This document shows, one piece after another, positions 2,981 through 50,739 of a DNA stretch of 64,000 bases. A program made the translations under genes and the position numbers. The notes below the pieces were generated by a model that was given only the letters and a program-made list of their open reading frames with translations, did no database searches and was not told the origin of the DNA. Position 1 is the first letter of the stretch. Each line of letters opens with the position of its first letter. Location: contig JBATDM010000105.1 in NCBI GenBank assembly GCA_049663465.1, positions 62-64,061 of the forward strand. The letters run 5' to 3'. The DNA comes from Pyrinomonadaceae bacterium. Lineage in GTDB: Bacteria > Acidobacteriota > Blastocatellia > Pyrinomonadales > Pyrinomonadaceae.

Positions 2981-3056
2981 AGTCTCTTAGCTCAGTTGGT
3001 AGAGCATTACCTTGACAAGGTAGGGGTCAGCAGTTCGAGTCTGCTAGAGACTACCA
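2981..3056 (+). tRNA. tRNA-Val (anticodon GAC)
   Basis: Hand-folded 76-nt cloverleaf. Acceptor AGTCTCT/AGAGACT, D arm GCTC..GAGC, anticodon arm TTACC-TTGACAA-GGTAG, T arm AGCAG-TTCGAGT-CTGCT, encoded CCA. Confidence 0.9.
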
Positions 3057-25148: not shown

Positions 25149-25225
25149 GCTCGCGTAGCTCAGTTGGATAGAGTGCTTCCCTCCGAAGGAAGAAGTCGCA
25201 GGTTCGAATCCCGCCGCGAGTACCA
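25149..25225 (+). tRNA. tRNA-Arg (anticodon CCG)
   Basis: Hand-folded 77-nt cloverleaf. Acceptor GCTCGCG/CGCGAGT (G-U at 1-72), anticodon arm CTTCC-CTCCGAA-GGAAG, T loop TTCGAAT (one A-C mismatch in the T stem), encoded CCA. Confidence 0.85.
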
Positions 25226-30965: not shown

Positions 30966-31040
30966 GGCGCCTTCGTCTATCGGTTAGGACGCTAGGTTCT
31001 CAACCTGGAAAGAGGGGTTCAACTCCCCTAGGCGCTACCA
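30966..31040 (+). tRNA. tRNA-Glu (anticodon CTC)
   Basis: Hand-folded 75-nt cloverleaf. Acceptor GGCGCCT/AGGCGCT, TTCGTCTA D region typical of tRNA-Glu, anticodon arm CTAGG-TTCTCAA-CCTGG, T arm AGGGG-TTCAACT-CCCCT, encoded CCA. Confidence 0.9.
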
Positions 31041-39128: not shown

Positions 39129-39770
39129 ATGTGTGGCAGAGCATCGCAGGCTGAGATACAGGCGTATAAAGACAGGATATTTGAATGGCTGCATCCTGAG
39201 GCGTTTATCCCGAGGCGGAATCTGCGTCCGACCGAGCCAGCGTGGATCGTGGCACGGCGGGGCGATGGTTTGGTAAAGACAGTTGAGGCTCGTTGGTGGT
39301 GTCAGTGGGACGGTTCGCGAAAGTTTGAGGCAAAATACCCGACATTTAACGCCCGCGTCGAGACTATGCACGACAAAAAGCTCTGGCCCGACCTGCTTCG
39401 CAAGGGCCAACGCTGCATCTTTCCGCTCGACAGTTTTTACGAGTGGCCGATAAAGGGCAAAGGGCTGCCGCCGGTCGAGATATTTGTAAAGGGCCGCCAG
39501 CCGTACGCACTCGCGGGGTTATGGAGCCGCTATTTTGAGGGCGAACAGACGCGATATTCCTTTACGACATTCACCTGCGAGCCAAACGAATTCATGCGCC
39601 CGATCCACGAAAAGGCAATGCCCGTTATCCTCAACTCGATCGAAGAACAAAAACTCTGGCTCCTCGAAGGCGACGAAGAACTCCTACGCCCCTACACCGG
39701 CGAAATGGAATCCACCCAACTCCCCGACACCCTCGAACACCTTTATCCCGAGGAGAATCAGAAGTACTAA
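39129..39770 (+). CDS. SOS response-associated peptidase (SRAP/YedK family)
   Basis: MCGR N-terminus (catalytic Cys2). FNARVET and SFYEW motifs. Confidence 0.85.
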   Translation: MCGRASQAEIQAYKDRIFEWLHPEAFIPRRNLRPTEPAWIVARRGDGLVKTVEARWWCQWDGSRKFEAKYPTFNARVETMHDKKLWPDLLRKGQRCIFPLDSFYEWPIKGKGLPPVEIFVKGRQPYALAGLWSRYFEGEQTRYSFTTFTCEPNEFMRPIHEKAMPVILNSIEEQKLWLLEGDEELLRPYTGEMESTQLPDTLEHLYPEENQKY

Positions 39771-39841
39771 ATGCAGGATGCGAATGTATTTTATCGAATC
39801 ACTAACAGTCGTGTTGGAAAAGGGTTTTCGGAAAGCTTAGA

Positions 39842-40384
39842 ATGGAACCCATGCCCCATCCACTAGAATCAAAATACGGGCTGACATCGCAAGAATTACT
39901 CGACGCAATCGATAAACGATTCCGGCTAAAAGTAGCACTCGAAGGTGCCGTTGCTGAGGTGCATTTTGAACGAAAGCTTCGGATTGCGAGCCGTGAGGGT
40001 TGGTTAACTAGTTATGAGGGGCATGATGTTGACGGGATGCATGACTTTACCGTTGTAACGCTCTCCGACGTGGCCATTCGGGTCGAAGTAAAGACGATAC
40101 GCAATGGCCCGAAGCCCAAGGTTGAATTACAAAAGACACGAGCCGCCAAGGGCGACCCCAGTAGCAGATACTACGACCTTACCCACTTTGATGTCGTCGC
40201 TGTCTGTGTCGGTCGTTTCACTGGCGACTGGTCTGAATTCCGATATGCTTTAGTGCGAGATTTGCCAAGTCACCGGAATCACCCTAAGAAGCTTCAGGTC
40301 ATGCACTCTATTCCCGACGCCGAGGATACAGAGCCGCGTTGGTTCTCACGCTTTCAGGATGTTATTGATGCCTATTCAGTTTGA
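39842..40384 (+). CDS. candidate type II restriction endonuclease (PD-(D/E)xK)
   Basis: 180-aa ORF overlapping the start of a DNA methyltransferase gene. D...E-x-K arrangement (HDFTVV ... IRVEVKT). No other family recognised. Confidence 0.5.
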
Positions 40385-41294
40385 ACATATTTACCAGACC
40401 GAGCTTGGAGCGATGTACTGTTCGGACAGCCTCGAATTCATGAGGCGTATGCCAAACGACTCGGTTGATTTGGTCGTAACGAGTCCGCCTTATGCACTTC
40501 ACTTCAAAAAGGAATATGGCAATGCTAATCAGGGCGATTACGTCTCTTGGATTCTTCCATTTGCGAAGGAAATCAAACGAATCATTAAGCCTTCAGGCTC
40601 GTTCGTTCTGAATATTGGCGGAGCCTGGCAGCCTGGTTCACCTGTCCGTAGTTTGTATCATTATAGAGTGCTAATGGCTCTTGTTGATGAAGTTGGCTTC
40701 GATCTGGCTCAAGAGTTTTTCTGGTACAATCCGGCAAAAATGCCCGCTCCCGCAGAATGGGTAAACGTACGTCGAATAAGGGTAAAGGACAGCGTTGAAT
40801 ATATCTATTGGCTTGTTAAAGACCCAATGGCTAATGCGGATAATCGAAATGTCCTTCAACCGTATAGTGACGACATGAAGCGTCTCATCAAACGCGGTGT
40901 GAAAGAAACCCTTAGACCAAGCGGCCATATGATAAAAACTAGTTTCGCAACTGACCAAGGCGGATCAATTCCCTCGAATCTAATACAATGTGGAAACACT
41001 GAATCAAATAGTGCCTATATCAAGAACAGCAAACTCGCTGGCAGTAAGATCCATCCGGCTCGGTATCCAGCAGATCTTCCCAAGTTTTTCATCGAATTTC
41101 TTACAAAACCGGGCGAACTTGTGCTTGATCCGTTTGCTGGCAGCAATACAACAGGACAAGTGGCTGAATCCTTGCGGAGAGAATGGATCGGAATTGAGAT
41201 AAGGGAAGATTACGCCGAGGAAAGTCGATTGCGGTTCGAGGGCGTTCCCGACGAAGTCGTCATCGCCCACGGCCAACAGCTTTTGCCTCTTTAA
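40368..41294 (+). CDS. DNA methyltransferase, beta-class N4/N6 (SPPY type)
   Basis: Motif IV TSPPY is N-terminal and motif [11 protein letters not shown] is C-terminal, followed by WIGIEI, giving beta-class order. The start could be 40359 or 40368. Confidence 0.85.
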
Positions 41295-41388
41295 CTTCAA
41301 CGGAAGTCACAGAAGTACGCTGAGACCCAGAGTCTTTGGGGGTTCCGCTTGTGGAATACTCATAACCCGCAATGAACCGACAAAGCCA

Positions 41389-41577
41389 ATGGTGCAGGAA
41401 GCGAAAGAAGCAGGCACGTTCAAACCCGAATTCTTCCAGCCGTTCGACAAACTCCAAATCGTAACCGTCCAACAGATCCTCCACGGCGAGAGAATGAATC
41501 TTCCGTTGATGGAAGAAGTCACCAAGAAAGCGCAAAAAGCATCAAAAACCAAACAAACCGGCCTCGCCTTTGAGTAA
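41389..41577 (+). pseudogene. possible C-terminal remnant of a second DNA methyltransferase
   Basis: The 62-aa ORF ...AKEAGTFKPEFFQPFDKLQIVTVQQILHGERMNLPL resembles the conserved C-terminal tail (..G.Y....yPkiQIlTieeLL.G..i.lP) of long adenine methyltransferases as I recall it. No upstream catalytic domain is present. Confidence 0.3.
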
Positions 41578-41619
41578 AAGGCGGTAAATGCTGGGCGAAA
41601 CGCTGTTCCTGTCGGACGT

Positions 41620-41829
41620 AGCGGCGTTCGCCAAGGACTCAGCGGCGCTCGCCAAGCACTCAGCGGCGTTCGCCAAGCACACAGCGAAGCTCGCTAAGCA
41701 CTCAGCGAAACTCGGCAAGGATTCAGCGAAGTTCGCGAACTACTCAGCGAAACTACGCAGGTATCTAGCGAAACTCTGCAACCACTCAGCGAAGCCTGCG
41801 ACCGACTCTGCGAAGCTCGCCAACCTGCC
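41620..41829. repeat. tandem array, 10 x 21 bp (consensus AGCGAAGCTCGCCAAGCACTC)
   Basis: Ten head-to-tail units counted by hand, starting at 41620, 41641, 41662, ... 41809. Each unit carries a GCGA-N3-TCGC-type inverted repeat. Degeneracy increases toward the 3' end. Confidence 0.9.
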
Positions 41830-41866
41830 ATCGACGTTCCCCGATAGATCGCGGACGAAAATTCTG

Positions 41867-41895
41867 TTGACTTTTATTTCATTCGGGAATATTAT
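41867..41895 (+). promoter_or_regulatory. sigma70-like promoter TTGACT-N17-TATTAT
   Basis: Hexamers at 41867-41872 and 41890-41895 with a 17-nt spacer, in an AT-rich stretch about 40 nt upstream of ATG 41937 (RBS AAGGAG). Confidence 0.35.
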
Positions 41896-41936
41896 TTTTT
41901 CCTTCCAACGACAAAATAAAAAAAGGAGATAACTCT

Positions 41937-42638
41937 ATGCCACAAGATTGGTACCCATCATCGCGGGATGCTCGGGCGGCTTGGCACGCGAATTTCGCGG
42001 CTCAGATCGGCGCTTTGGCGACGAAGTATGGAATTTCGGCGGGGACGCTGTTGCTGATTGCGGCGGACAACGCCTGGATGCAGTATTGGGTGCAGGCCCG
42101 CAGTGATGCGGACGCGCTCAAGCAACAGTTGACACAGTTTTTCAATATTATCTCCGGCAATGACGATTCGCTGCCGCAACCAGCTCCAATCAATTTTGCA
42201 CTCGCTCCCGATCCGGCAAATGAGGTGGCGCCGGGCATCGAGAAACGCGTTCGCGAGGTCGTGCGGCAAATCAAGGGCGATATGGAGTATTCCGTAGCGG
42301 ACGGCGAACTGCTCGGTATCGTCTCGCCCGCGAAAGAAGGCGGTCCGCTTGGCCCGGGCGATCTGGTCTCGCCGGAATTTGAGTTACGGACGCTTGCCGC
42401 GTTCGAGCTTGAGGCGAGATTTAAAAGGATGGGCAACGACGCGGTCAAATTCCAGTATCGCTATATTGGCGGCACTTGGATAACCGCCGCGACACTCCTC
42501 AGCAGCCCCGGAAGTTTTGCCATCCCGCCGTCCACACCGGGCGTCGGTCAGCAGATCGAGATCCGCGGCATCTTCCTAAAGGGCAACAAAGAGGTCGGCA
42601 TCTACTCCGACGCTAAATCCACGTTCATCGCACCGTAG
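41937..42638 (+). CDS. hypothetical protein (orphan)
   Basis: 233-aa ORF with a strong AAGGAGA RBS and a terminator downstream. No family recognised. The C-terminal half looks beta-rich. Confidence 0.55.
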   Translation: MPQDWYPSSRDARAAWHANFAAQIGALATKYGISAGTLLLIAADNAWMQYWVQARSDADALKQQLTQFFNIISGNDDSLPQPAPINFALAPDPANEVAPGIEKRVREVVRQIKGDMEYSVADGELLGIVSPAKEGGPLGPGDLVSPEFELRTLAAFELEARFKRMGNDAVKFQYRYIGGTWITAATLLSSPGSFAIPPSTPGVGQQIEIRGIFLKGNKEVGIYSDAKSTFIAP

Positions 42639-42655
42639 AACGCGAATACGTAAGA

Positions 42656-42690
42656 TAAAAAGCCGCCTTCACGACGAGGGCGGTTTTTTG
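42656..42690. terminator. bidirectional rho-independent terminator
   Basis: AAAAAGCCGCCTTC-ACGAC-GAGGGCGGTTTTTT. An 8-bp GC-rich stem with an A-run upstream and a T-run downstream, between convergent genes. Confidence 0.6.
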
Positions 42691-42712
42691 TTTGGGATGC
42701 TCGATTCGATAT

Positions 42713-43009
42713 TTAGAAGTGAGCCGGGCTGAGATCGGGTTCGGCGTTGCTGATGAGGCGACTCTTGAAGCAGGCCGCATGACAAAACCATACCTGCCAT
42801 TTCTCGCCTGCGGTTTCTACCGAGATCGTGCAGGGGTCGATCGGCGATTCAAGAATATCTTTACCGCAGAAACAACACGGCCCAAGTACGATTGTCGGGT
42901 CGTCAGGCGGAATGAGTGTTGGAGTGGGGATCCCGAAAACTATTCTAACCTTCTGCTCAATCGAGCCGAAGATGAAATCATTTATCTTACCCATGCCCAA
43001 TGATATCAC
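42713..43009 (-). CDS. small Cys-rich hypothetical protein
   Basis: 98-aa ORF with GPCCFCG and CHAAC motifs. No family recognised. Confidence 0.4.
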   Translation of the reverse strand: MISLGMGKINDFIFGSIEQKVRIVFGIPTPTLIPPDDPTIVLGPCCFCGKDILESPIDPCTISVETAGEKWQVWFCHAACFKSRLISNAEPDLSPAHF

Positions 43010-43896: not shown

Positions 43897-44235
43897 CTAT
43901 TTTGCAGCTTTCGGCTTTGGCGGACGCTTCGTCGAAGCTTTCGCCTTCGGCTCCGCAGCCTTTGCCGGACCGCTCGACGTCTTCCCGCCGGATGACGCGG
44001 TCGCCGCCGCCGCCTTCTTGACCTCGTTCTCGATCTTTTCGCTGATATCGTGGATAAAATCGCCGGCCTTGTCCATCGCTTTGGCAGATGTGTTGGCAAT
44101 GTAGGTCAGCGTCTCGCCAAGCGTCGCCGCCTCCATTCGCATTAGGCTCGCGATCTTTTCCTCGAGCGTCAGTGCGGCAAATTCCTCTTCGAGCCGCGTC
44201 TTGGCCTTTGGCTCAGATGTTTTTTTATCGGTCAT
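43897..44235 (-). CDS. hypothetical protein with Lys/Ala/Pro-rich C-terminal tail
   Basis: 112-aa ORF. The tail AAEPKAKASTKRPPKPKAAK resembles histone H1-like basic tails. Confidence 0.45.
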   Translation of the reverse strand: MTDKKTSEPKAKTRLEEEFAALTLEEKIASLMRMEAATLGETLTYIANTSAKAMDKAGDFIHDISEKIENEVKKAAAATASSGGKTSSGPAKAAEPKAKASTKRPPKPKAAK

Positions 44236-44311: not shown

Positions 44312-44830
44312 TCAATGGATCGCCGTCCGCACCTTTACCTTTGGCTGGCCGCCTGATGGCGTTGGGTTCGTTTCCGCCTTCAACTGCTGGCATTCGGAAC
44401 AAAGTCCCCACATTCTCAGACTATGATGTGTCGGCTTAAAGCCAAATTTCCCCGCCATCTCGTCCTGCAGCGTCTCGATCTCCTCCGAGAAGAATTCGAT
44501 GACCTTTCCGCACTCGGTGCAGATCATATGGTCATGGTGCTCGTGATCGTAGTGATGCTCATAGTACGTCTTGTTGTCGCCAAAACGAACCTCGCGGGCA
44601 AGACCGGCCTCGGTGAGCAGCTTGAGCGTTCGATAGACCGTTGTGAGCCCGACCGTGTCATCCTGCTTCCGAACAAGCCCGTAAAGATCCTCACTCGTAA
44701 GGTGTTCCTCCGTGCTCAGAAAGATCTCGAGGATCAATTCCCTCTGGCCCGTTCGCCTCAGGCCCGACGCCTGTATGTGCTCGTCAAAGATGCCCTTTTC
44801 TACTTCGAATTTACCGTCTTTCTTGGCCAA
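44312..44830 (-). CDS. fur: Fur family transcriptional regulator
   Basis: Winged-helix N-terminus, [11 protein letters not shown], and the C-terminal CSEC metal site. Confidence 0.85.
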
Positions 44831-44857: not shown

Positions 44858-45745
44858 CTACCATTTCAGTTTTGATTTCGCTATGGAAACCTTTGTGCGG
44901 AGTATGTCGATGCGTTCCTCGCTGACGCCCTGCCTTGCCGCGAGTTCAAGCGAACGCTCACCCAAAAGCAGGTATATCTCGAGCAGCGAATCCGAGACAT
45001 TCTCGTTTAGCGCCGTCAGGTGCCGCGTGAATGTATCGGTGTCGGCGCGGGCAAAGGTCCCCGTCAATGCTGCCGCCGTGCTCTGTTCATTAAGGTTCTT
45101 TACCGTACTCGTCACGAGAGGAAGCAGTATCTGTTTGGACTCGTCCGAGCTGAGTCCGCATTTCGTCATCATCTCGACCGCCGCGTCAAAAAGCGCGACC
45201 AAATGGCCGCAAGCAGTGACCGCCGCCGCGTGATAAAGCGTCTTAAATCGCGTATCGATAGAGAACGGCCTGCCGCTGAGATCTTCGACGATCCGCGTGC
45301 CGACTGCGACCGCATTTTCGTCGCCTTCGACACAGAAGAACGAACCGGGAAATCTTTCAGGGCCAAGTTCCGCACTGCTGATCGAAACGAGCGGATGTAT
45401 CGAACCCGTGCTGCAACCCATCGCTTTTAGAGCGGAGAGCACAGAAGAATCGAACGCTCCGCTTGTGTGAAATACCGTGGGCGTGCCAGTGATCCGTGAA
45501 GAGATTTGGTCGGCAGCCGACACAATATTGCCGTCCTGAGTCGTAATGAAGACAACGTCGCTTTCGATCTTTGTGTCCTCGTTCAGGCTCGACACAAACG
45601 CTTGTGATCCCAGTTCGCGAGCGATCACGCCAGCGGATGAGACATCCCTGGACACCAAATTTGCAATAGAATAGCGGTCAGATGGCAAACTCCGTGCAAG
45701 AGCACCACCAACGCGGCCAACACCTACTATCGATGCTCTGATCAT
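44858..45745 (-). CDS. Rossmann-fold oxidoreductase, DUF2520-containing family
   Basis: IVGVGRVGGALARSL dinucleotide motif and a C-terminal helical domain as in DUF2520 proteins. Confidence 0.6.
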   Translation of the reverse strand: MIRASIVGVGRVGGALARSLPSDRYSIANLVSRDVSSAGVIARELGSQAFVSSLNEDTKIESDVVFITTQDGNIVSAADQISSRITGTPTVFHTSGAFDSSVLSALKAMGCSTGSIHPLVSISSAELGPERFPGSFFCVEGDENAVAVGTRIVEDLSGRPFSIDTRFKTLYHAAAVTACGHLVALFDAAVEMMTKCGLSSDESKQILLPLVTSTVKNLNEQSTAAALTGTFARADTDTFTRHLTALNENVSDSLLEIYLLLGERSLELAARQGVSEERIDILRTKVSIAKSKLKW

Positions 45746-45817: not shown

Positions 45818-48800
45818 TCACTGACTCAGAGTTGCTTCAACCGGAACGGATATTGGCTCCCAGGCTGGTGAACCTTCATCAAAAAGATCGATCTCGTCCC
45901 CGTTGAGGTCGGGGGAAAGGCTAAAGCTTTCCGACGAACCATCCGCCGCACGCTCAGCCGCGACTTTTAAGAGCCTAATATCCTGGCCCGAAAGTCCCGC
46001 CAATCCGCCTGCTGTCAAAAGTTCCTCAAGAATTCGGTTGACCGACGACCTCATCGCTTCTGTTTCTGCCGCGTCGGCAAGAGCGGCGGCATTTGCCTTG
46101 AGCCGCGACTCGATCGTTGAAAGGCCATTTCCGATAGTTGAACGAAGCTGCGTCGGAAGATCCTTTAGACGTCGGTGCCCCGATAGACTAAACGAACAAT
46201 TGCAAAATGGCTGTTCGAGCAGTATCTCATCCGTATTCGCGCCGCACCGCAACTGCCGTATCTCACGGATCAGCGAGCGAGACTTTGTAACAAATCGCTG
46301 GTCTGCCCACACGATCCGGTAGAGACTCTCAAACGCCGACCACTCGGGCGAGGCGAGGATATTTCTCAGATCATCCGCGACCGCATCTTTCCCCATGATC
46401 GAGCTATGTTTCTCGACATAATACGCAGAATATGTCCCGAGAAAATTCTGCCACAAGTTCTCAACCTGGCTCACATCGCTCGCGTTCGCCCAGAAGGTCG
46501 ACGGATCTATAGCCGCAAGCAGGGATTTGCGTGCCGATTCAACCTCGGCATTATCGGTCACCTCACAAACAGAAAGATACGACGCTATGGCTGTCCGGCG
46601 GCCAACGCCCTTTGTAAACTCACCGAGAGTACGAAGCTCATTTCGCTTTTTCTCAAATTCAGGCTCTGAATCCGAAAAATGTTCAGCGATGGCATGGAGA
46701 GCGTCATCAAGCGATATTTCGTCCTTGACCAAGCGGTCGATCACTTCGGCCATCGAGCCAAAGGTCTTTTTTAGGCTTGCCGCAGTCCGCCATATTTGAG
46801 CATTCAGATTCTCGTCCGGTAACGCATCAAAATCGGCGAGTACGCTGCTCTCCTTCCAGGCAGAGAGCCAACCGGACAACGAGTCAATTATCAGAAGCCG
46901 ATCTTCTGCTCTATCGAGGGACTTGATGCCCGAGTTGCCGGTTGTAAGTTTGGCCCAAGCCAACAGCCTGTCAGGAGCATAGGCCTCATTTAGAGGGTTC
47001 GCCAGGCCAACGATGTCTTCCCAAATGATACGAAGATCGAGCGACCTGTGGCTGATTCGATTTCCGTTCGCCGTTACGAATTCGAATTGACGCTGCGAAA
47101 CAAGTGCGACCATTATTAGCCGCATTGCTTCTCGAGTCAGACCAAAGGGTTGTTCCCCGAAAAGCCTGGCGATAGCGGACAATTCGATCGGCGAACCGTC
47201 ATTCTTTCCGATCGCCTCAAAAGTAGAATTGACGACCGGCAGGGCGGTCAAAATGTCATTCGCTGATGGGACGTAACTTTCACCTTGCTTGATGGCAACA
47301 CCCAGCGGCACCGCAAATGTCTCAGCAAGACCCTGACTATCCGCATTATTTACGCCGCCACCGCCAAAAAAATCAGCGATCAGGGCGGAACAGCGTTTGT
47401 CGTCAAGAACATTGCTAAAACGCGGGTGCTCCGGATATCGTTGCTCGAAAATTGGAGCAAGGGCTTCCGATAGAAGGTGCGTGAGACCATGGGCTGCAAC
47501 CGACGATCCTGCAAATGGATATTCGGCCCCGTCAGCCAGCAATCTTGCTTCTTCAAAGAAGATCCTCTGCCAGATCTTCTCAACCCCCATATTATGGACG
47601 TGAACCGCGGTAGCTAATCCGTCACCAAGACTCTCCCGCACTCCTGCATCCACCTGCATGAGGTGATGACGTTGGATCAGTTCCTTTTCATCCGGCGCCA
47701 GCTCCGCAATTTTCCAAATAATTTCGCCGGGCACTGGTTCCGGAATTGAATCTGCAAAACTTAGGCGGACTATCCAATCCAGATCCTGCGTTATGGCAAC
47801 TCCATTAGAATTCCAGATCACCGCCCCGCGCCGGATTCCACCACGCCACTCTACCGTGCAGAACGTCGAGCGAATCTCAGAGCTTGCGGACATCCCGGCA
47901 TCAGCAAATTTATCAGCGGTCACCTTTAGCAAGACATCGGAAATGACCTCATCGCCAACCGTCCCTAAAGCACTCGCCATGACGTCGCCCACTTCAGATT
48001 TCGCGATCAATCTAAAGCAATACTTTGGCGGACGGTCGTCCTGTTCGACCTTCACTATTGCACCGGGAATAGCTTCGACGCACGTGTCGAGGAGTTCGCC
48101 AACGTTAATTGACATCGAGCTGCCGTCATCGGCAAATATCATCATCGATGCTGCGATCTCCGCACTTGTGGTGCCCTGTCCATTCAGCGAGAGCATGAGC
48201 AGGCCTTTCAAGAGGAGCTTTGCATGTAACCGTTGGTGGACCGGCATTTTCGACACAACTTGCTGTTCTATCGAATCAAACGACACAAAGGCATCAGACA
48301 ACTCAGGTACGGCCCGCAATTTCTTCTCTACACTGTCGTACACTTCATCCAGCCCGATCAGGGAGTTGGCCGGACGTCCGAGAATTCTAACTCCGGCTTC
48401 GGCCGCAAAGCCGAGAAGTGCAAAGTCGTGGACGTACAGCCGGATCAACGGAGCGATCTCGACGGTTGCTGGATGCAAGGGATAGAGTGAAGTGAAACGC
48501 TGCTCACTCCAGCGAAATCCCGGCATTACCTGCCGATAATATTCGTAGATCTCGCGAAGCAGTGGAAGCTGCTGACTGTGCTTGGTAAATATGTGCGCAT
48601 CAACGATCTTGTAGAGGTGTTCCTGATCAAGATAGTCAATGGTAAAGCTCGCCGAGATCGAAGAATTTGGCCCGTCCGCCCCTGAAATATCATCGTCGAG
48701 AGCCACACCAACAAAAATCCCGAGCGTATCTGCGGCATCTGCGACCTCGCTGATCAGCGGCCCGTCGTCTCGAGATACCCTGGTTTCCCGGCCAAGTGCA

Positions 48801-49300
48801 GTGTCTATGAGGACAACAAGAGGTGAGTCGCCGGCATGCTCCGAAGCTCGCAATAAGAGGTCATAGAGCGAGTCGCTCAGTGTGCCGGGATTAACTCCCA
48901 ACAGCTCAGCAACCGCGAGTCTAAGCTCGTCTACCAGCGATATGCCAACGCCACGGCGAACCGCGACGACGCATCCATGTCTTCGTGAGAGGCGATCCGC
49001 ACTCGCGGCGACATAGGGATGACCGATCTTCGGCCGGAGCTCCGGATTTGCGACCAAGGCCCAAATGACAGAGAGAAAATGGCTCTTTCCAACCCCTCGA
49101 AACCCTGCAAGCGCGAGAGCAGCCCCCTGTCCCGGTTTGACGCGAGAAATGGCTTCGATCCATTTCCCCATCAAGTCGGCTGTAATATCGGTAAAATGAT
49201 AGCCGGCCAGCGTAAGTGCTGGGTCCGCGCCAAAATCGTTCAGGTGCGTAAACGGACGCACCTCGACGATGTCTCTTACCTTTTCTGCGACACGCTTCAT
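45818..49300 (-). CDS. large P-loop NTPase, BrxC/PglY-like (DUF499/DUF6079-like), orphan
   Basis: 1160-aa ORF. Walker A context LAGFRGVGKSHFLSVIWAL closely matches the GFFGSGKSHFLK context of BrxC as I recall it. A Walker B-like PLVVLIDT follows. The long helical C-terminal region contains CGANTDEILLEQPFCNC. Confidence 0.55.
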   Translation of the reverse strand: MKRVAEKVRDIVEVRPFTHLNDFGADPALTLAGYHFTDITADLMGKWIEAISRVKPGQGAALALAGFRGVGKSHFLSVIWALVANPELRPKIGHPYVAASADRLSRRHGCVVAVRRGVGISLVDELRLAVAELLGVNPGTLSDSLYDLLLRASEHAGDSPLVVLIDTALGRETRVSRDDGPLISEVADAADTLGIFVGVALDDDISGADGPNSSISASFTIDYLDQEHLYKIVDAHIFTKHSQQLPLLREIYEYYRQVMPGFRWSEQRFTSLYPLHPATVEIAPLIRLYVHDFALLGFAAEAGVRILGRPANSLIGLDEVYDSVEKKLRAVPELSDAFVSFDSIEQQVVSKMPVHQRLHAKLLLKGLLMLSLNGQGTTSAEIAASMMIFADDGSSMSINVGELLDTCVEAIPGAIVKVEQDDRPPKYCFRLIAKSEVGDVMASALGTVGDEVISDVLLKVTADKFADAGMSASSEIRSTFCTVEWRGGIRRGAVIWNSNGVAITQDLDWIVRLSFADSIPEPVPGEIIWKIAELAPDEKELIQRHHLMQVDAGVRESLGDGLATAVHVHNMGVEKIWQRIFFEEARLLADGAEYPFAGSSVAAHGLTHLLSEALAPIFEQRYPEHPRFSNVLDDKRCSALIADFFGGGGVNNADSQGLAETFAVPLGVAIKQGESYVPSANDILTALPVVNSTFEAIGKNDGSPIELSAIARLFGEQPFGLTREAMRLIMVALVSQRQFEFVTANGNRISHRSLDLRIIWEDIVGLANPLNEAYAPDRLLAWAKLTTGNSGIKSLDRAEDRLLIIDSLSGWLSAWKESSVLADFDALPDENLNAQIWRTAASLKKTFGSMAEVIDRLVKDEISLDDALHAIAEHFSDSEPEFEKKRNELRTLGEFTKGVGRRTAIASYLSVCEVTDNAEVESARKSLLAAIDPSTFWANASDVSQVENLWQNFLGTYSAYYVEKHSSIMGKDAVADDLRNILASPEWSAFESLYRIVWADQRFVTKSRSLIREIRQLRCGANTDEILLEQPFCNCSFSLSGHRRLKDLPTQLRSTIGNGLSTIESRLKANAAALADAAETEAMRSSVNRILEELLTAGGLAGLSGQDIRLLKVAAERAADGSSESFSLSPDLNGDEIDLFDEGSPAWEPISVPVEATLSQ

Positions 49301-49563
49301 TAGAAATGCTCTAGATCAAGCCTGGGAATTCGGGCCAATATTGTGCTCCAGTGAATTTGCGATCTCAGTCCCGACGGGACTATCGAAGTATATTTTAACA
49401 AGTTTTATCACTTTAGAGAATACTTATTTTCCCTTCAAGACGACTTTCTTGCTTTTTTCAACTTTTCACAACTTTTCTTGGCAGTTTTGCATCACATATT
49501 CGTTGGAATAGCATTGAAATAGGGCTACAATCTCTATAAGCGTTCACGAATGGGAGAAGTATT

Positions 49564-50739
49564 ATGCGAAAGGCAGTAAATAGGCGTTTTGGAGCGGGCA
49601 TTTTGATCGCAAGTATCTGGTCGAGTGTGATTGTCGTCATTCCGACGCACACGCTAGCTCAGGACGCCAAAAAGGATAAAGCGGCACCAACAAAGCAGGC
49701 GAAGAGTGAGAAAGCTAAGAAGGACGTAAAACCGGCGCCGACTCCTGCCTCGACTTTGAGCACAAAGGAAGATCCGGCACAGATCGGCAAGCGAAAGATT
49801 AATTCGGGAACGGATCGATTCTTCGGTTGGTTGGGCGGATCCCAGGATAAGGAAATGCAGCTCGGCCGCCAGCTCGCACTTGAGGTAGAGCAAAGTGCCA
49901 AAATGGTCGACGATCCCGTAATTACAGAGTACGTTAATCGGGTTGGGCAAAACATCGTACTTCACTCGGACGCGAAGGTTCCGTTTACGATCAAGGTCAT
50001 CGATAGTGACGAGGTGAATGCTTTTGCTTTGCCGGGCGGCTTCTTTTTCGTCAACAAGGGGCTGATCCTGGCTGCCGACAACGAGGCTGAACTTGCGGGC
50101 GTCATGGCTCACGAGATAGCTCACGTAGCCGCTCGTCACGCCATGGAGAACCAGGGCAAGGGTACTTTTATCCAGTATGGAATGCTTGCGGGAATTATCT
50201 TTGGCGGCGGCATAGCGAGTGCGGTTCTTCAAAACGGCGGCGGAATTCTTGGAGCCTTAGGCATGCTGAAATTCTCGCGCGGAGCTGAGGAAGAGGCTGA
50301 CCGCCTAGGTGTTCAATACCTGTACGCTTCCGGATACGATCCGACTGCAATGTCCACTATGTTTGAAAAGCTTGCTTCGCAGAATAAAAAGAAACCGGGT
50401 ACACTTGCGAAGCTTTTTTCATCGCATCCCCAGTCACTTGAACGGCGCGATGATAGCTTACAGCTTGTAGCCCGTTTTCCAGAAAAAGAAGAATACACGA
50501 TCAGCACGTCGGAATTTCAACGCGTCAAGAGCCATCTATTCCGCTCGACCAATGCAAAGGCTGGAGTGCTGGTGGATTACGATCAAACTGATGACAGCAG
50601 GCCGACCCTGAAGAAGAGACAGCCTGATGCCTCCGATCCAAATGCAGATAGCGGTTCAAGTTCTTCGTCGGACGCTCCGCCGACTCTTAAGACGAAGGGC
50701 GAACCGGAACCAAAAGCAACTCCTACTCCTCAGGGCTAA
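49564..50739 (+). CDS. M48 family zinc metallopeptidase (secreted)
   Basis: Signal peptide. HEIAH zinc motif (VMAHEIAHVAARH) and the downstream GAEEEADRLG. Confidence 0.85.
   Translation: MRKAVNRRFGAGILIASIWSSVIVVIPTHTLAQDAKKDKAAPTKQAKSEKAKKDVKPAPTPASTLSTKEDPAQIGKRKINSGTDRFFGWLGGSQDKEMQLGRQLALEVEQSAKMVDDPVITEYVNRVGQNIVLHSDAKVPFTIKVIDSDEVNAFALPGGFFFVNKGLILAADNEAELAGVMAHEIAHVAARHAMENQGKGTFIQYGMLAGIIFGGGIASAVLQNGGGILGALGMLKFSRGAEEEADRLGVQYLYASGYDPTAMSTMFEKLASQNKKKPGTLAKLFSSHPQSLERRDDSLQLVARFPEKEEYTISTSEFQRVKSHLFRSTNAKAGVLVDYDQTDDSRPTLKKRQPDASDPNADSGSSSSSDAPPTLKTKGEPEPKATPTPQG

Follow-up and report, generated by a model that had tools for sequence, protein, structure and literature searches.

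A stand-alone, vertically inherited BrxC-like (DUF6079) protein at a fixed chromosomal locus of Blastocatellia

BrxC is the least understood of the core proteins of the bacteriophage exclusion (BREX) systems, and its first structures appeared only in 2026. The present work concerns a relative of BrxC, a protein of 1160 residues encoded on the minus strand of a stretch of 64,000 nt (hereafter the window) from a Pyrinomonadaceae bacterium (Acidobacteriota; Blastocatellia; assembly GCA_049663465.1, contig JBATDM010000105.1). A preliminary description of this locus had recognized an orphan BrxC/PglY-like P-loop protein. That observation was confirmed, whereas its interpretation is supported in part: the family, the orphan state and the native base composition hold, and a BrxC-like ATPase, a defence role or a module formed with the genes downstream are disfavoured. 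With a probability of roughly 0.55, the protein is a lineage-specific and vertically inherited BrxC paralogue that acts outside BREX and serves the physiology of the host as an ATP-bound switch or scaffold. In the literature, no account was found of a stand-alone, vertically inherited or acidobacterial BrxC clade.

In a recent survey, DUF6079 was the top profile for canonical BrxC, whose domain architecture was described. In BrxC of the type 1 BREX system of Acinetobacter, BrxC(Aci), D268 is the Walker B aspartate, E269 the catalytic glutamate, K326 and R330 the arginine fingers and R430 the sensor 2 residue; in the E269Q mutant the ATPase activity is lower and the N-terminal domains, whose association depends on ATP, are joined more stably. 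In the solved complex, ATP bridges BrxC to BrxC and BrxC to BrxB at interfaces built from E269, K326 and R330 (PMC13326643). Outside canonical BREX, a DUF6079 protein with all BrxC domains is found in a HerA/FtsK-centred BREX-related system, together with six conserved partners, i.e. PglZ, a STAND NTPase, DUF4007, HerA/FtsK, GNAT and TGT (Rakesh and Krishnan, bioRxiv 10.1101/2025.10.09.681413).

BrxC of type 1 BREX (PDB 9zdx, 9zll, 9zn5; NF033441) is the best structural and profile match of the acidobacterial protein. Both have a leader followed by a GxxGxGKSHF Walker A motif, an ORC/Cdc6-type AAA+ fold, a YP(F/L)xP(Y/A) motif in the lid and the same succession of winged helix-turn-helix (wHTH), alpha+beta, wHTH and coiled-coil domains, over comparable lengths (1160 versus ~1200-1226 residues). 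The acidobacterial protein nevertheless differs from BrxC by its low identity (~16%), a stretch between Walker A and Walker B that is ~90 residues shorter, the putative replacement of the catalytic glutamate by threonine and of the arginine fingers by serine, and the possession of RxxRxxR and DDD..GADG motifs and of an invariant cysteine triad; its gene is chromosomal, vertically inherited and under uniform purifying selection, and has no brxA, brxB, pglX, pglZ or brxL neighbours. PglY of type 2 BREX (Pgl) and other DUF6079 proteins belong to the same Pfam family (PF19557), a likeness established by family models. The BrxC-PglY models of PADLOC are the best defence-library matches of the protein, but, unlike in the PglY context, PglW, PglX and PglZ are not found nearby. 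Likewise, none of the six partners of the HerA/FtsK-centred system is present in the window. The DUF499 ATPases of the BREX-related (BR) systems possess a related N-terminal AAA+ ATPase; the protein does not belong with them, as Pfam DUF499 gave no match at E <= 0.01 and the paired methyltransferase and helicase neighbours of BR systems were not found in the window. The second-best structural matches are the Orc1/Cdc6 initiators, which share the AAA+ plus winged-helix fold class but lack the alpha+beta domain and the coiled coil and show no similarity at the sequence level. Orc1/Cdc6 proteins are ATP switches, not motors.

Several lines of evidence converge on the kinship with BrxC. The protein matches Pfam DUF6079 (PF19557, named BrxC-PglY_N in newer releases) over three stretches, well above the gathering threshold (53.6 bits versus a cutoff of 23, E = 9e-15), and the same match is precomputed for many homologues. 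PADLOC BrxC-PglY models match weakly, at best with E = 2e-9 over residues 63-395. An AlphaFold2 (AF2) model was built from the family alignment (mean predicted local distance difference test score, 77) and compared with the PDB using Foldseek: the top match is the N-terminal region of Acinetobacter BrxC (9zll_D, E = 9e-6; also 9zdx), followed by Orc1/Cdc6. Probabilities of 1.00 to 2qby_A, 2v1u_A, 1fnn_A and many ORC subunits place the ATPase core in the ORC/Cdc6 clade, the template modelling scores to Orc1/Cdc6 being low because only the N-terminal third aligns. A broadened family profile (A2) retrieved BrxC 9zll_A as its best PDB sequence match (E = 1.6e-5), although searches of the PDB with the single sequence or a close-family profile returned nothing relevant. 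Alignment of the family with four canonical BrxC by hhalign was collinear from residues 154-746 to residues 255-847 (~590 residues; probability 84%, E = 7e-6). Beyond this block the coiled coil gives no significant alignment to that of BrxC, but weak collinear matches to BrxC models (690-990 versus 779-1067). The domain order agrees with that of BrxC, which runs from an ORC/Cdc6 AAA+ domain through a wHTH, an alpha+beta domain of ~200 residues and one or more wHTH to a long coiled coil bearing a distal subdomain. A fold search against viral proteins returned generic AAA+ matches only, none at E <= 0.001, and phmmer with the distant relative P0211 found nothing. On the combined evidence of Pfam, PADLOC, the AF2 model, Foldseek, the family profile and hhalign, the assignment to the BrxC/PglY (DUF6079) superfamily proposed in the preliminary description is therefore sound. 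However, the NCBIfam equivalog of BrxC, NF033441, scores 22.3 bits against a cutoff of 400; by this measure the protein is not a canonical BrxC.

The single 3.5-kb open reading frame (ORF) reported earlier is real. It begins with ATG, a start supported by an alignment of 55 homologues in which M1 is invariant and K2 and R3 are near-invariant; the invariances given below for single residues of the N-terminal third refer to the same alignment. The leader contains the invariant residues Y34, F36, T37 and D38, and its layout ahead of a GxFGxGKSHF-like motif, noted in the preliminary description, aligns directly to the sequence of the solved BrxC. The Walker A segment LAGFRGVGKSHF is present at residues 64-75; its lysine K72 is invariant, nearly so when outgroups are added, matches GSGKSHF of 9zll_A and is the counterpart of the Walker A lysine K78 of BrxC(Aci). 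The Walker-B-like PLVVLIDT (residues 160-167) is also present and ends strand beta-3 in the AF2 model, i.e. at the Walker-B position. In the lid, YPLHPA aligns to the invariant YPFxPY of BrxC (hhalign). The region that follows had been described as about 900 helical residues; in the model, instead, winged helices and an alpha+beta domain of ~190 residues occupy positions 374-770 and only residues ~771-1120 form a coiled coil. Within the alpha+beta domain, a connector of two helices leads into four strands, a pair of long helices and a last pair of strands, which is the published order of BrxC, and further on P718-F-G720 aligns to the invariant P819-Y-G-W of BrxC. The 'Cys pair' noticed near the C-terminus consists indeed of cysteines, but they form a triad, C1019, C1033 and C1035, located near the tip of the coiled coil and without counterpart in canonical BrxC. 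Together with H965, a candidate fourth ligand of a putative metal site that could make the coiled-coil apex zinc-hook-like, they are among just 21 columns that are invariant across the clade and the outgroups (19-100% identity). The protein has no signal peptide or membrane segment and contains domains of DNA-binding type. The acidic C-terminal tail (DEIDLFDE) was considered as a clamp-binding peptide or one resembling that of single-stranded DNA-binding proteins and was rejected, being unconserved; many members end instead in WE.E[VI]..[VL]E.F.N. In one member (P0028; L004, 13276-13627), the last ~75 residues form a Lys/Arg/Pro-rich low-complexity tail unlike that of other members, probably owing to a frameshift or an assembly error near the 3' end.

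In the nucleotide site, D166 is invariant and aligns to the Walker B aspartate D268 of BrxC(Aci), but the next position, corresponding to the catalytic glutamate E269, is T167; Thr or Ser is found here in nearly all clade members, down to 29% identity, with occasional Ala or Gln. The arginine fingers K326 and R330 align to S214 and S218, respectively, and no Lys or Arg is conserved within residues 213-219. Less certainly, the sensor 2 arginine R430 aligns to A294. The spacing between Walker A and Walker B is 94 residues versus 190 in BrxC, so that ~90 residues are missing. Two motifs are specific to the clade: the loop after Walker B, with R171, R174 and R177 invariant, and the sensor-1 region, in which D203, D204, D209, G210 and N212 are invariant and which is kept down to 29% identity but not in the outgroups. 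As judged from these alignments, the catalytic glutamate and both arginine-finger positions are replaced in the clade, the arginine-finger result being moderately secure because the identity of the aligned sequences is low. An ATPase like BrxC, as first envisaged, is thus doubtful. Given the behaviour of BrxC E269Q, the natural Thr variant is expected to bind ATP and to hydrolyse it slowly or not at all.

No BREX partner accompanies the gene in the neighbourhoods inspected. PglX, PglZ, BrxA, BrxB and BrxL were not detected in the window by Pfam, PADLOC, NCBIfam and further scans, in agreement with the preliminary description, nor were BREX partners found in the annotated contexts of eight clade members and four outgroups. 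Comparison by phmmer of canonical BrxA, BrxB, PglX and PglZ with all ORFs of the window and of 12 loci gave no match, a search of low sensitivity because even BrxC(Aci) misses the large ORF in this way. A BREX cluster combining PglZ with PglX or another modification module, BrxA and BrxB is therefore absent from the window and from the annotated contexts. The control brxC genes, four canonical ones from plasmids of Acinetobacter, Escherichia coli, Bacillus and a haloarchaeon, all lie inside brxA-brxB-brxC-pglX clusters. The whole clade and its nearest outgroups, not merely one genome, are orphan with respect to BREX. Since partners are lacking and the hydrolysis residues appear replaced, the protein is probably no longer part of BREX.

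Blastocatellia inherit the gene vertically, at one and the same place on the chromosome, and purifying selection on it is strong. Full-length homologues with 43-92% identity number more than 120, all from Acidobacteriota where named (Pyrinomonadaceae and 'Chloracidobacterium' metagenome-assembled genomes); among 1.84 billion cluster representatives, only 471 proteins reach E <= 0.001. The annotated contexts of members at 55, 46 and 43% identity share the order BamD, M48 (divergent), the large gene, DUF2520, Fur, two or three hypotheticals, MscS and Nramp. A metagenome scan added 51 loci. Among 60 distinct loci of Blastocatellia/Pyrinomonadaceae spanning 34-92% identity, and counting those with enough flank, M48 is found upstream on the opposite strand in 48/49, DUF2520 downstream in 36/39 and Fur downstream in 36/39. 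The 280-aa hypothetical is found downstream in 25/33 and was lost in one subclade that retains the large gene. Neighbourhood tabulation, proposed earlier as a check on a module with the downstream orphans, thus shows M48, DUF2520 and Fur to be constant instead. The identity of the protein co-varies with that of its neighbours, a signature of vertical descent: Spearman rho amounts to 0.91 for DUF2520, 0.86 for BamD, 0.84 for RsmB and 0.71-0.81 for Fur, Nramp, MscS and the 280-aa gene (0.71-0.91 in seven of the eight neighbours tested). Parts of the arrangement persist in the most distant members, with M48 and Fur kept at 34% identity (P0149), DUF2520 kept and overlapping the end of the large gene at 32% (P0161) and M48 alone kept at 30% (P0173). 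The contig of P0173, the most divergent member, encodes a ribosomal protein S2, and every named relative of the latter comes from Pyrinomonadaceae or Acidobacteriota; this deepest member therefore appears to be part of the lineage (class Blastocatellia). A scan of 2.9 million viral contigs found no relative encoded there. The orthologues lie among housekeeping genes, a context held beforehand to be adverse to the family call if joined to a different established function; no such function is established, so the family resemblance stands while BREX membership does not.

The ratio of nonsynonymous to synonymous substitution rates (dN/dS) between the window gene and its closest relative (L016, 92% amino acid identity) is 0.066 overall, below that of the adjacent DUF2520 gene (0.10). 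By region it is 0.006 for the lid, 0.05 for the AAA+ core, 0.085 for the alpha+beta domain, 0.084 for wHTH2/3 and 0.06 for the coiled coil, and reaches its highest value, 0.16, in the tail. A recent survey reported hypervariability of the alpha+beta and wHTH regions in BREX BrxC and ascribed it to an arms race; the same regions of the acidobacterial protein give no signal of hypervariability. The marks of a defence island (patchy distribution, transfer, variable context, fast-evolving specificity domains) were not seen across the 60 loci, the dN/dS values and the viral contigs.

The nearest outgroups (P0188, P0195, P0211, P0221 and their groups; 19-27% identity, DUF6079) are also stand-alone. 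They are full length, share the C-x13-C-x-C triad and have no BREX genes adjoining, but differ by Walker-B states D-G and D-D, by the lack of RxxRxxR and DDD..GADG and by unrelated, non-syntenic contexts. P0188 (L009, L010) is found among planctomycete-type PSD/PSCyt/HXXSHH genes, with a 108-aa ORF just upstream and a malic-enzyme gene just downstream; the wider stand-alone radiation may therefore extend beyond Acidobacteria. A distant relative, P0241 (1258 aa), combines a DUF6079-type N-terminal P-loop region with a response-regulator receiver domain (residues 829-941), a hint that two-component signalling involves some members of this radiation. Two other relatives, P0257 (2015 aa) and P0261 (1715 aa), are unusually long.

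The features of the protein and of its surroundings are listed in Table 1. The GC content of the gene (0.52-0.53) is the same as that of the window, consistent with the native composition perceived by eye. Same-strand gaps downstream measure 72, 27, 76, 18 and 26 nt. The co-directional minus-strand run of DUF2520, fur and three orphan genes had been correctly described as to neighbours, strand and gaps, but its third orphan lies outside the conserved run. No family match was obtained for the 112-aa and 280-aa hypotheticals in Pfam, PADLOC and NCBIfam scans. The 112-aa protein has a helical N-terminal half and a Lys/Ala/Pro-rich tail (...PAKAAEPKAKASTKRPPKPKAAK) resembling histone H1-like DNA-binding tails; the N-terminal part of the protein is kept in L001-L005. 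On the upstream side, the BamD gene follows beyond M48. The remaining large ORFs of the window are housekeeping genes, encoding ThrRS, PheRS alpha and beta, MltG, an SLT transglycosylase, aconitase, gamma-glutamyltranspeptidase, Nramp, MscS, RsmB, alkaline phosphatase and aldehyde dehydrogenase. Rfam matches in the window are limited to three plus-strand tRNA genes (2981-3053, 25149-25222 and 30966-31037).

Table 1. Positions in the window of the features of the BrxC-like gene and its surroundings (h, hydrophobic residue; aa, amino acid residues)
Feature	Position	Strand	Basis or remark
Whole gene: stand-alone BrxC-like (DUF6079) protein, 1160 aa	45818..49300	-	ORF, Pfam, homologues, dN/dS
N-terminal leader, aa 1-57, with Y34-x-x-T37 motif	49130..49300	-	with Walker A aligns to BrxC(Aci) 32-97
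AAA+ (ORC/Cdc6-type) P-loop core, aa 58-240	48581..49129	-	five-strand core in AF2 model; Foldseek
Walker A, G66-F-R-G-V-G-K-S-H74	49079..49105	-	invariant in 55 members; aligns to GFFGSGKSHF of BrxC
Walker B variant hhhhD166-T167 and R171-x2-R174-x2-R177 loop	48770..48820	-	alignments
ALDDDIxGADGxN motif after strand beta-4, aa 196-212, sensor-1 region	48665..48715	-	clade-specific
Helical lid region, aa 241-373, with YPLHPA and GRPANSLIGLDE	48182..48580	-	most constrained part, dN/dS 0.006
Winged-helix domain 1, aa 374-432	48005..48181	-	AF2 secondary structure; collinear with BrxC wHTH1 (ends residue 551)
Alpha+beta domain, aa 433-625	47426..48004	-	AF2 model; hhalign to BrxC
Winged-helix domains 2 and 3, aa 626-770, PFGLTREA motif	46991..47425	-	AF2 model
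Helical coiled-coil region, aa 771-1120	45941..46990	-	AF2 model
Cys triad C1019-x13-C1033-x-C1035, non-helical break in coiled coil; putative metal site	46196..46246	-	invariance
DUF2520/Rossmann-like protein	44858..45745	-	Pfam; 72 nt downstream of the large gene
Fur-family regulator	44312..44830	-	Pfam FUR E = 8e-38
112-aa hypothetical, Lys/Ala/Pro-rich tail, after Fur	43897..44235	-	homologues in L001-L006; conserved, not strictly linked to the large gene
280-aa hypothetical, N-terminal hydrophobic segment	43036..43878	-	homologues in L001-L006; not strictly linked to the large gene
Third 'orphan', Cys-rich, 98 aa	42713..43009	-	ORF list
M48 (BepA-like) peptidase, divergently transcribed, most constant neighbour	49564..50739	+	Pfam and NCBIfam
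Conserved ~30-bp element, AAAAnTTGTTAAAnT preceded by GTATTCT	49392..49422	.	intergenic, shared with divergent M48 gene
SRAP/YedK-like gene	39129-39770		in block 39129-43009
180-aa ORF, overlaps methyltransferase start	39842-40384		in block 39129-43009
N6/N4 DNA methyltransferase	40359-41294		in block 39129-43009

The intergenic element upstream of the large gene is the sole invariant block among eight aligned upstream regions. It fits an extended -10 (TGnTAAAAT) for the large gene on the minus strand and TTAACA-18-AATACT for the M48 gene on the plus strand, but a promoter and terminator scan performed no better than on shuffled sequences. No Fur box was seen by eye in the upstream region, where no motif scan was made. 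A perfect palindrome with a 6-bp stem, GTCCCG-T-CGGGAC (49368-49380), is found ~70 nt ahead of the ATG, within the putative 5' leader, and is only partly conserved in relatives; neither it nor the element matched an Rfam family.

Downstream, the block 39129-43009 is not present at any of the six syntenic loci examined, where the 280-aa gene is directly followed by MscS and Nramp, and it looks like a small genome-specific insertion. Its 180-aa ORF and methyltransferase are possibly a type II restriction-modification (R-M) pair. Although a methyltransferase is thus encoded in the vicinity, it is not PglX but a small enzyme resembling those of type II. The block also holds a low-complexity 114-aa ORF (AKxSAKL repeats), a 233-aa ORF and the Cys-rich minus-strand orphan of 98 aa. 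The position of this third orphan in the block, together with the incomplete linkage of the 280-aa gene, speaks against a module of the large protein with the orphans downstream.

For a BrxC paralogue independent of BREX, the following mode of action may be proposed. The protein would bind ATP and hydrolyse it slowly or not at all, and would as a consequence serve as a scaffold or a switch gated by nucleotide, not as a motor. Dimerization would probably take place via the C-terminal coiled coil, perhaps stabilised by a metal, and the winged-helix domains would probably engage either the DNA of the host itself or one of the host's proteins. The role would be housekeeping or stress-related, not phage exclusion. 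A more tentative extension would give BrxC a counterpart in housekeeping: an ATP switch of ORC/Cdc6 type with a coiled coil, probably a dimer stabilised by metal, which would act on the Blastocatellia chromosome and whose tasks would lie in nucleoid organisation, replication or repair, or stress-linked gene control. Such a counterpart could be a domesticated defence protein or a surviving relative of the ancestral protein that BREX took up as BrxC. Its relation to BREX would resemble that of MukBEF/condensin to Wadjet.

Several observations weigh against this reading. The protein is very acidic (net charge -50), and its alpha+beta domain carries -13 versus -5 in BrxC, an acidity that gives no support to contact of that domain with DNA. 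Taken as a proxy for such binding, net charge is uninformative to mildly negative, BrxC itself being acidic overall and yet binding DNA (PMC13326643). The arginine-finger and sensor-2 equivalences rest on a profile alignment of 16% identity, and the invariant D202-D204 acidic cluster with the three arginines of the loop after Walker B could provide an alternative catalytic site, leaving the protein an active ATPase. The partner searches covered the window and +/-10 kb around the homologues, leaving room for BREX-like partners elsewhere in the genome. The protein also evolves faster than its neighbours, with 34-64% identity where M48 retains 69-86%, and in this one genome a small R-M islet is inserted ~3 kb downstream. 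Finally, the housekeeping role would follow solely from the evolutionary behaviour of the gene.

Some of these observations would be in keeping with a stand-alone sensor or effector of innate immunity that derived from BrxC, became fixed in the lineage and acts on phages or plasmids without PglX or PglZ, its effectors being encoded elsewhere or supplied by host factors. The faster evolution and the nearby islet would suit it, as would the facts that the characterised relatives are all defence proteins and that the PADLOC BrxC and SspC models are the only functional matches. Stand-alone defence, already suggested in the preliminary description, is nonetheless rather unlikely in view of the fixed position in 60 loci, the co-divergence with neighbours and a dN/dS that exceeds 0.16 in no domain, not even in the alpha+beta and wHTH parts that are reportedly hypervariable in BREX BrxC. 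Moreover, no effector adjoins the gene in any annotated context, no relative occurs in viral contigs and the islet is missing from the six syntenic loci. A slightly smaller chance is given to a conserved functional unit with M48, through the shared divergent promoter, or with DUF2520 and Fur in one operon, in which the large protein might be the regulator or scaffold of a metal-, redox- or envelope-stress response; this would be compatible with the BREX-independent switch. The conservation of M48, DUF2520 and Fur down to 34% identity is in line with such a unit, and so are the adjacency of M48 in L008 where all else has changed, the overlap of DUF2520 with the gene end in L012, the conserved element in the shared intergenic region and the short gaps without terminator-like site between the genes. 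Plain inherited synteny fits equally, however, as BamD, RsmB, MscS and Nramp are conserved around the gene too, and each partner is lost somewhere while the large gene persists (L008, L011, L012, L041). In addition, M48/BepA-like proteases belong to the envelope, whereas the large protein has neither signal peptide nor membrane segment and carries domains of DNA-binding type.

The full BrxC architecture and the DUF6079 membership would also be expected if the protein were the BrxC/PglY subunit of a true BREX-type system with its remaining genes elsewhere in the genome, beyond the regions inspected. Such an arrangement is improbable: the score of 22 bits is far from the NCBIfam BrxC equivalog cutoff of 400, the interface residues E269, K326 and R330 all appear replaced, the four control brxC genes are tightly clustered with brxA, brxB and pglX, and no partner occurs in the annotated clade contexts or the four outgroup contexts. 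The survey of BREX diversity does not mention Acidobacteria. A decaying, functionless relic of a lost BREX system would explain the missing partners and the loss of the catalytic glutamate and arginine fingers, but it is hardly credible for a protein that is full length in more than 120 homologues, with Walker A and many clade-specific motifs invariant, and the selection analysis (dN/dS 0.066) contradicts it.

The clade offers a natural, partner-free relative of BrxC with an altered Walker B. Without PglZ, BrxB and PglX, the P-loop, the lid, the winged helices and the coiled coil were kept, while the catalytic glutamate, the arginine fingers and the ~90-residue insert would have changed; this contrast helps to separate the intrinsic activity of BrxC from its BREX-specific interactions. 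For annotation, it follows that a BREX system should not be deduced from matches to DUF6079 or 'BrxC-PglY_N' in Acidobacteria. Should the housekeeping reading hold, the protein would provide a new case of exchange between the immune machinery and the core machinery of the cell.

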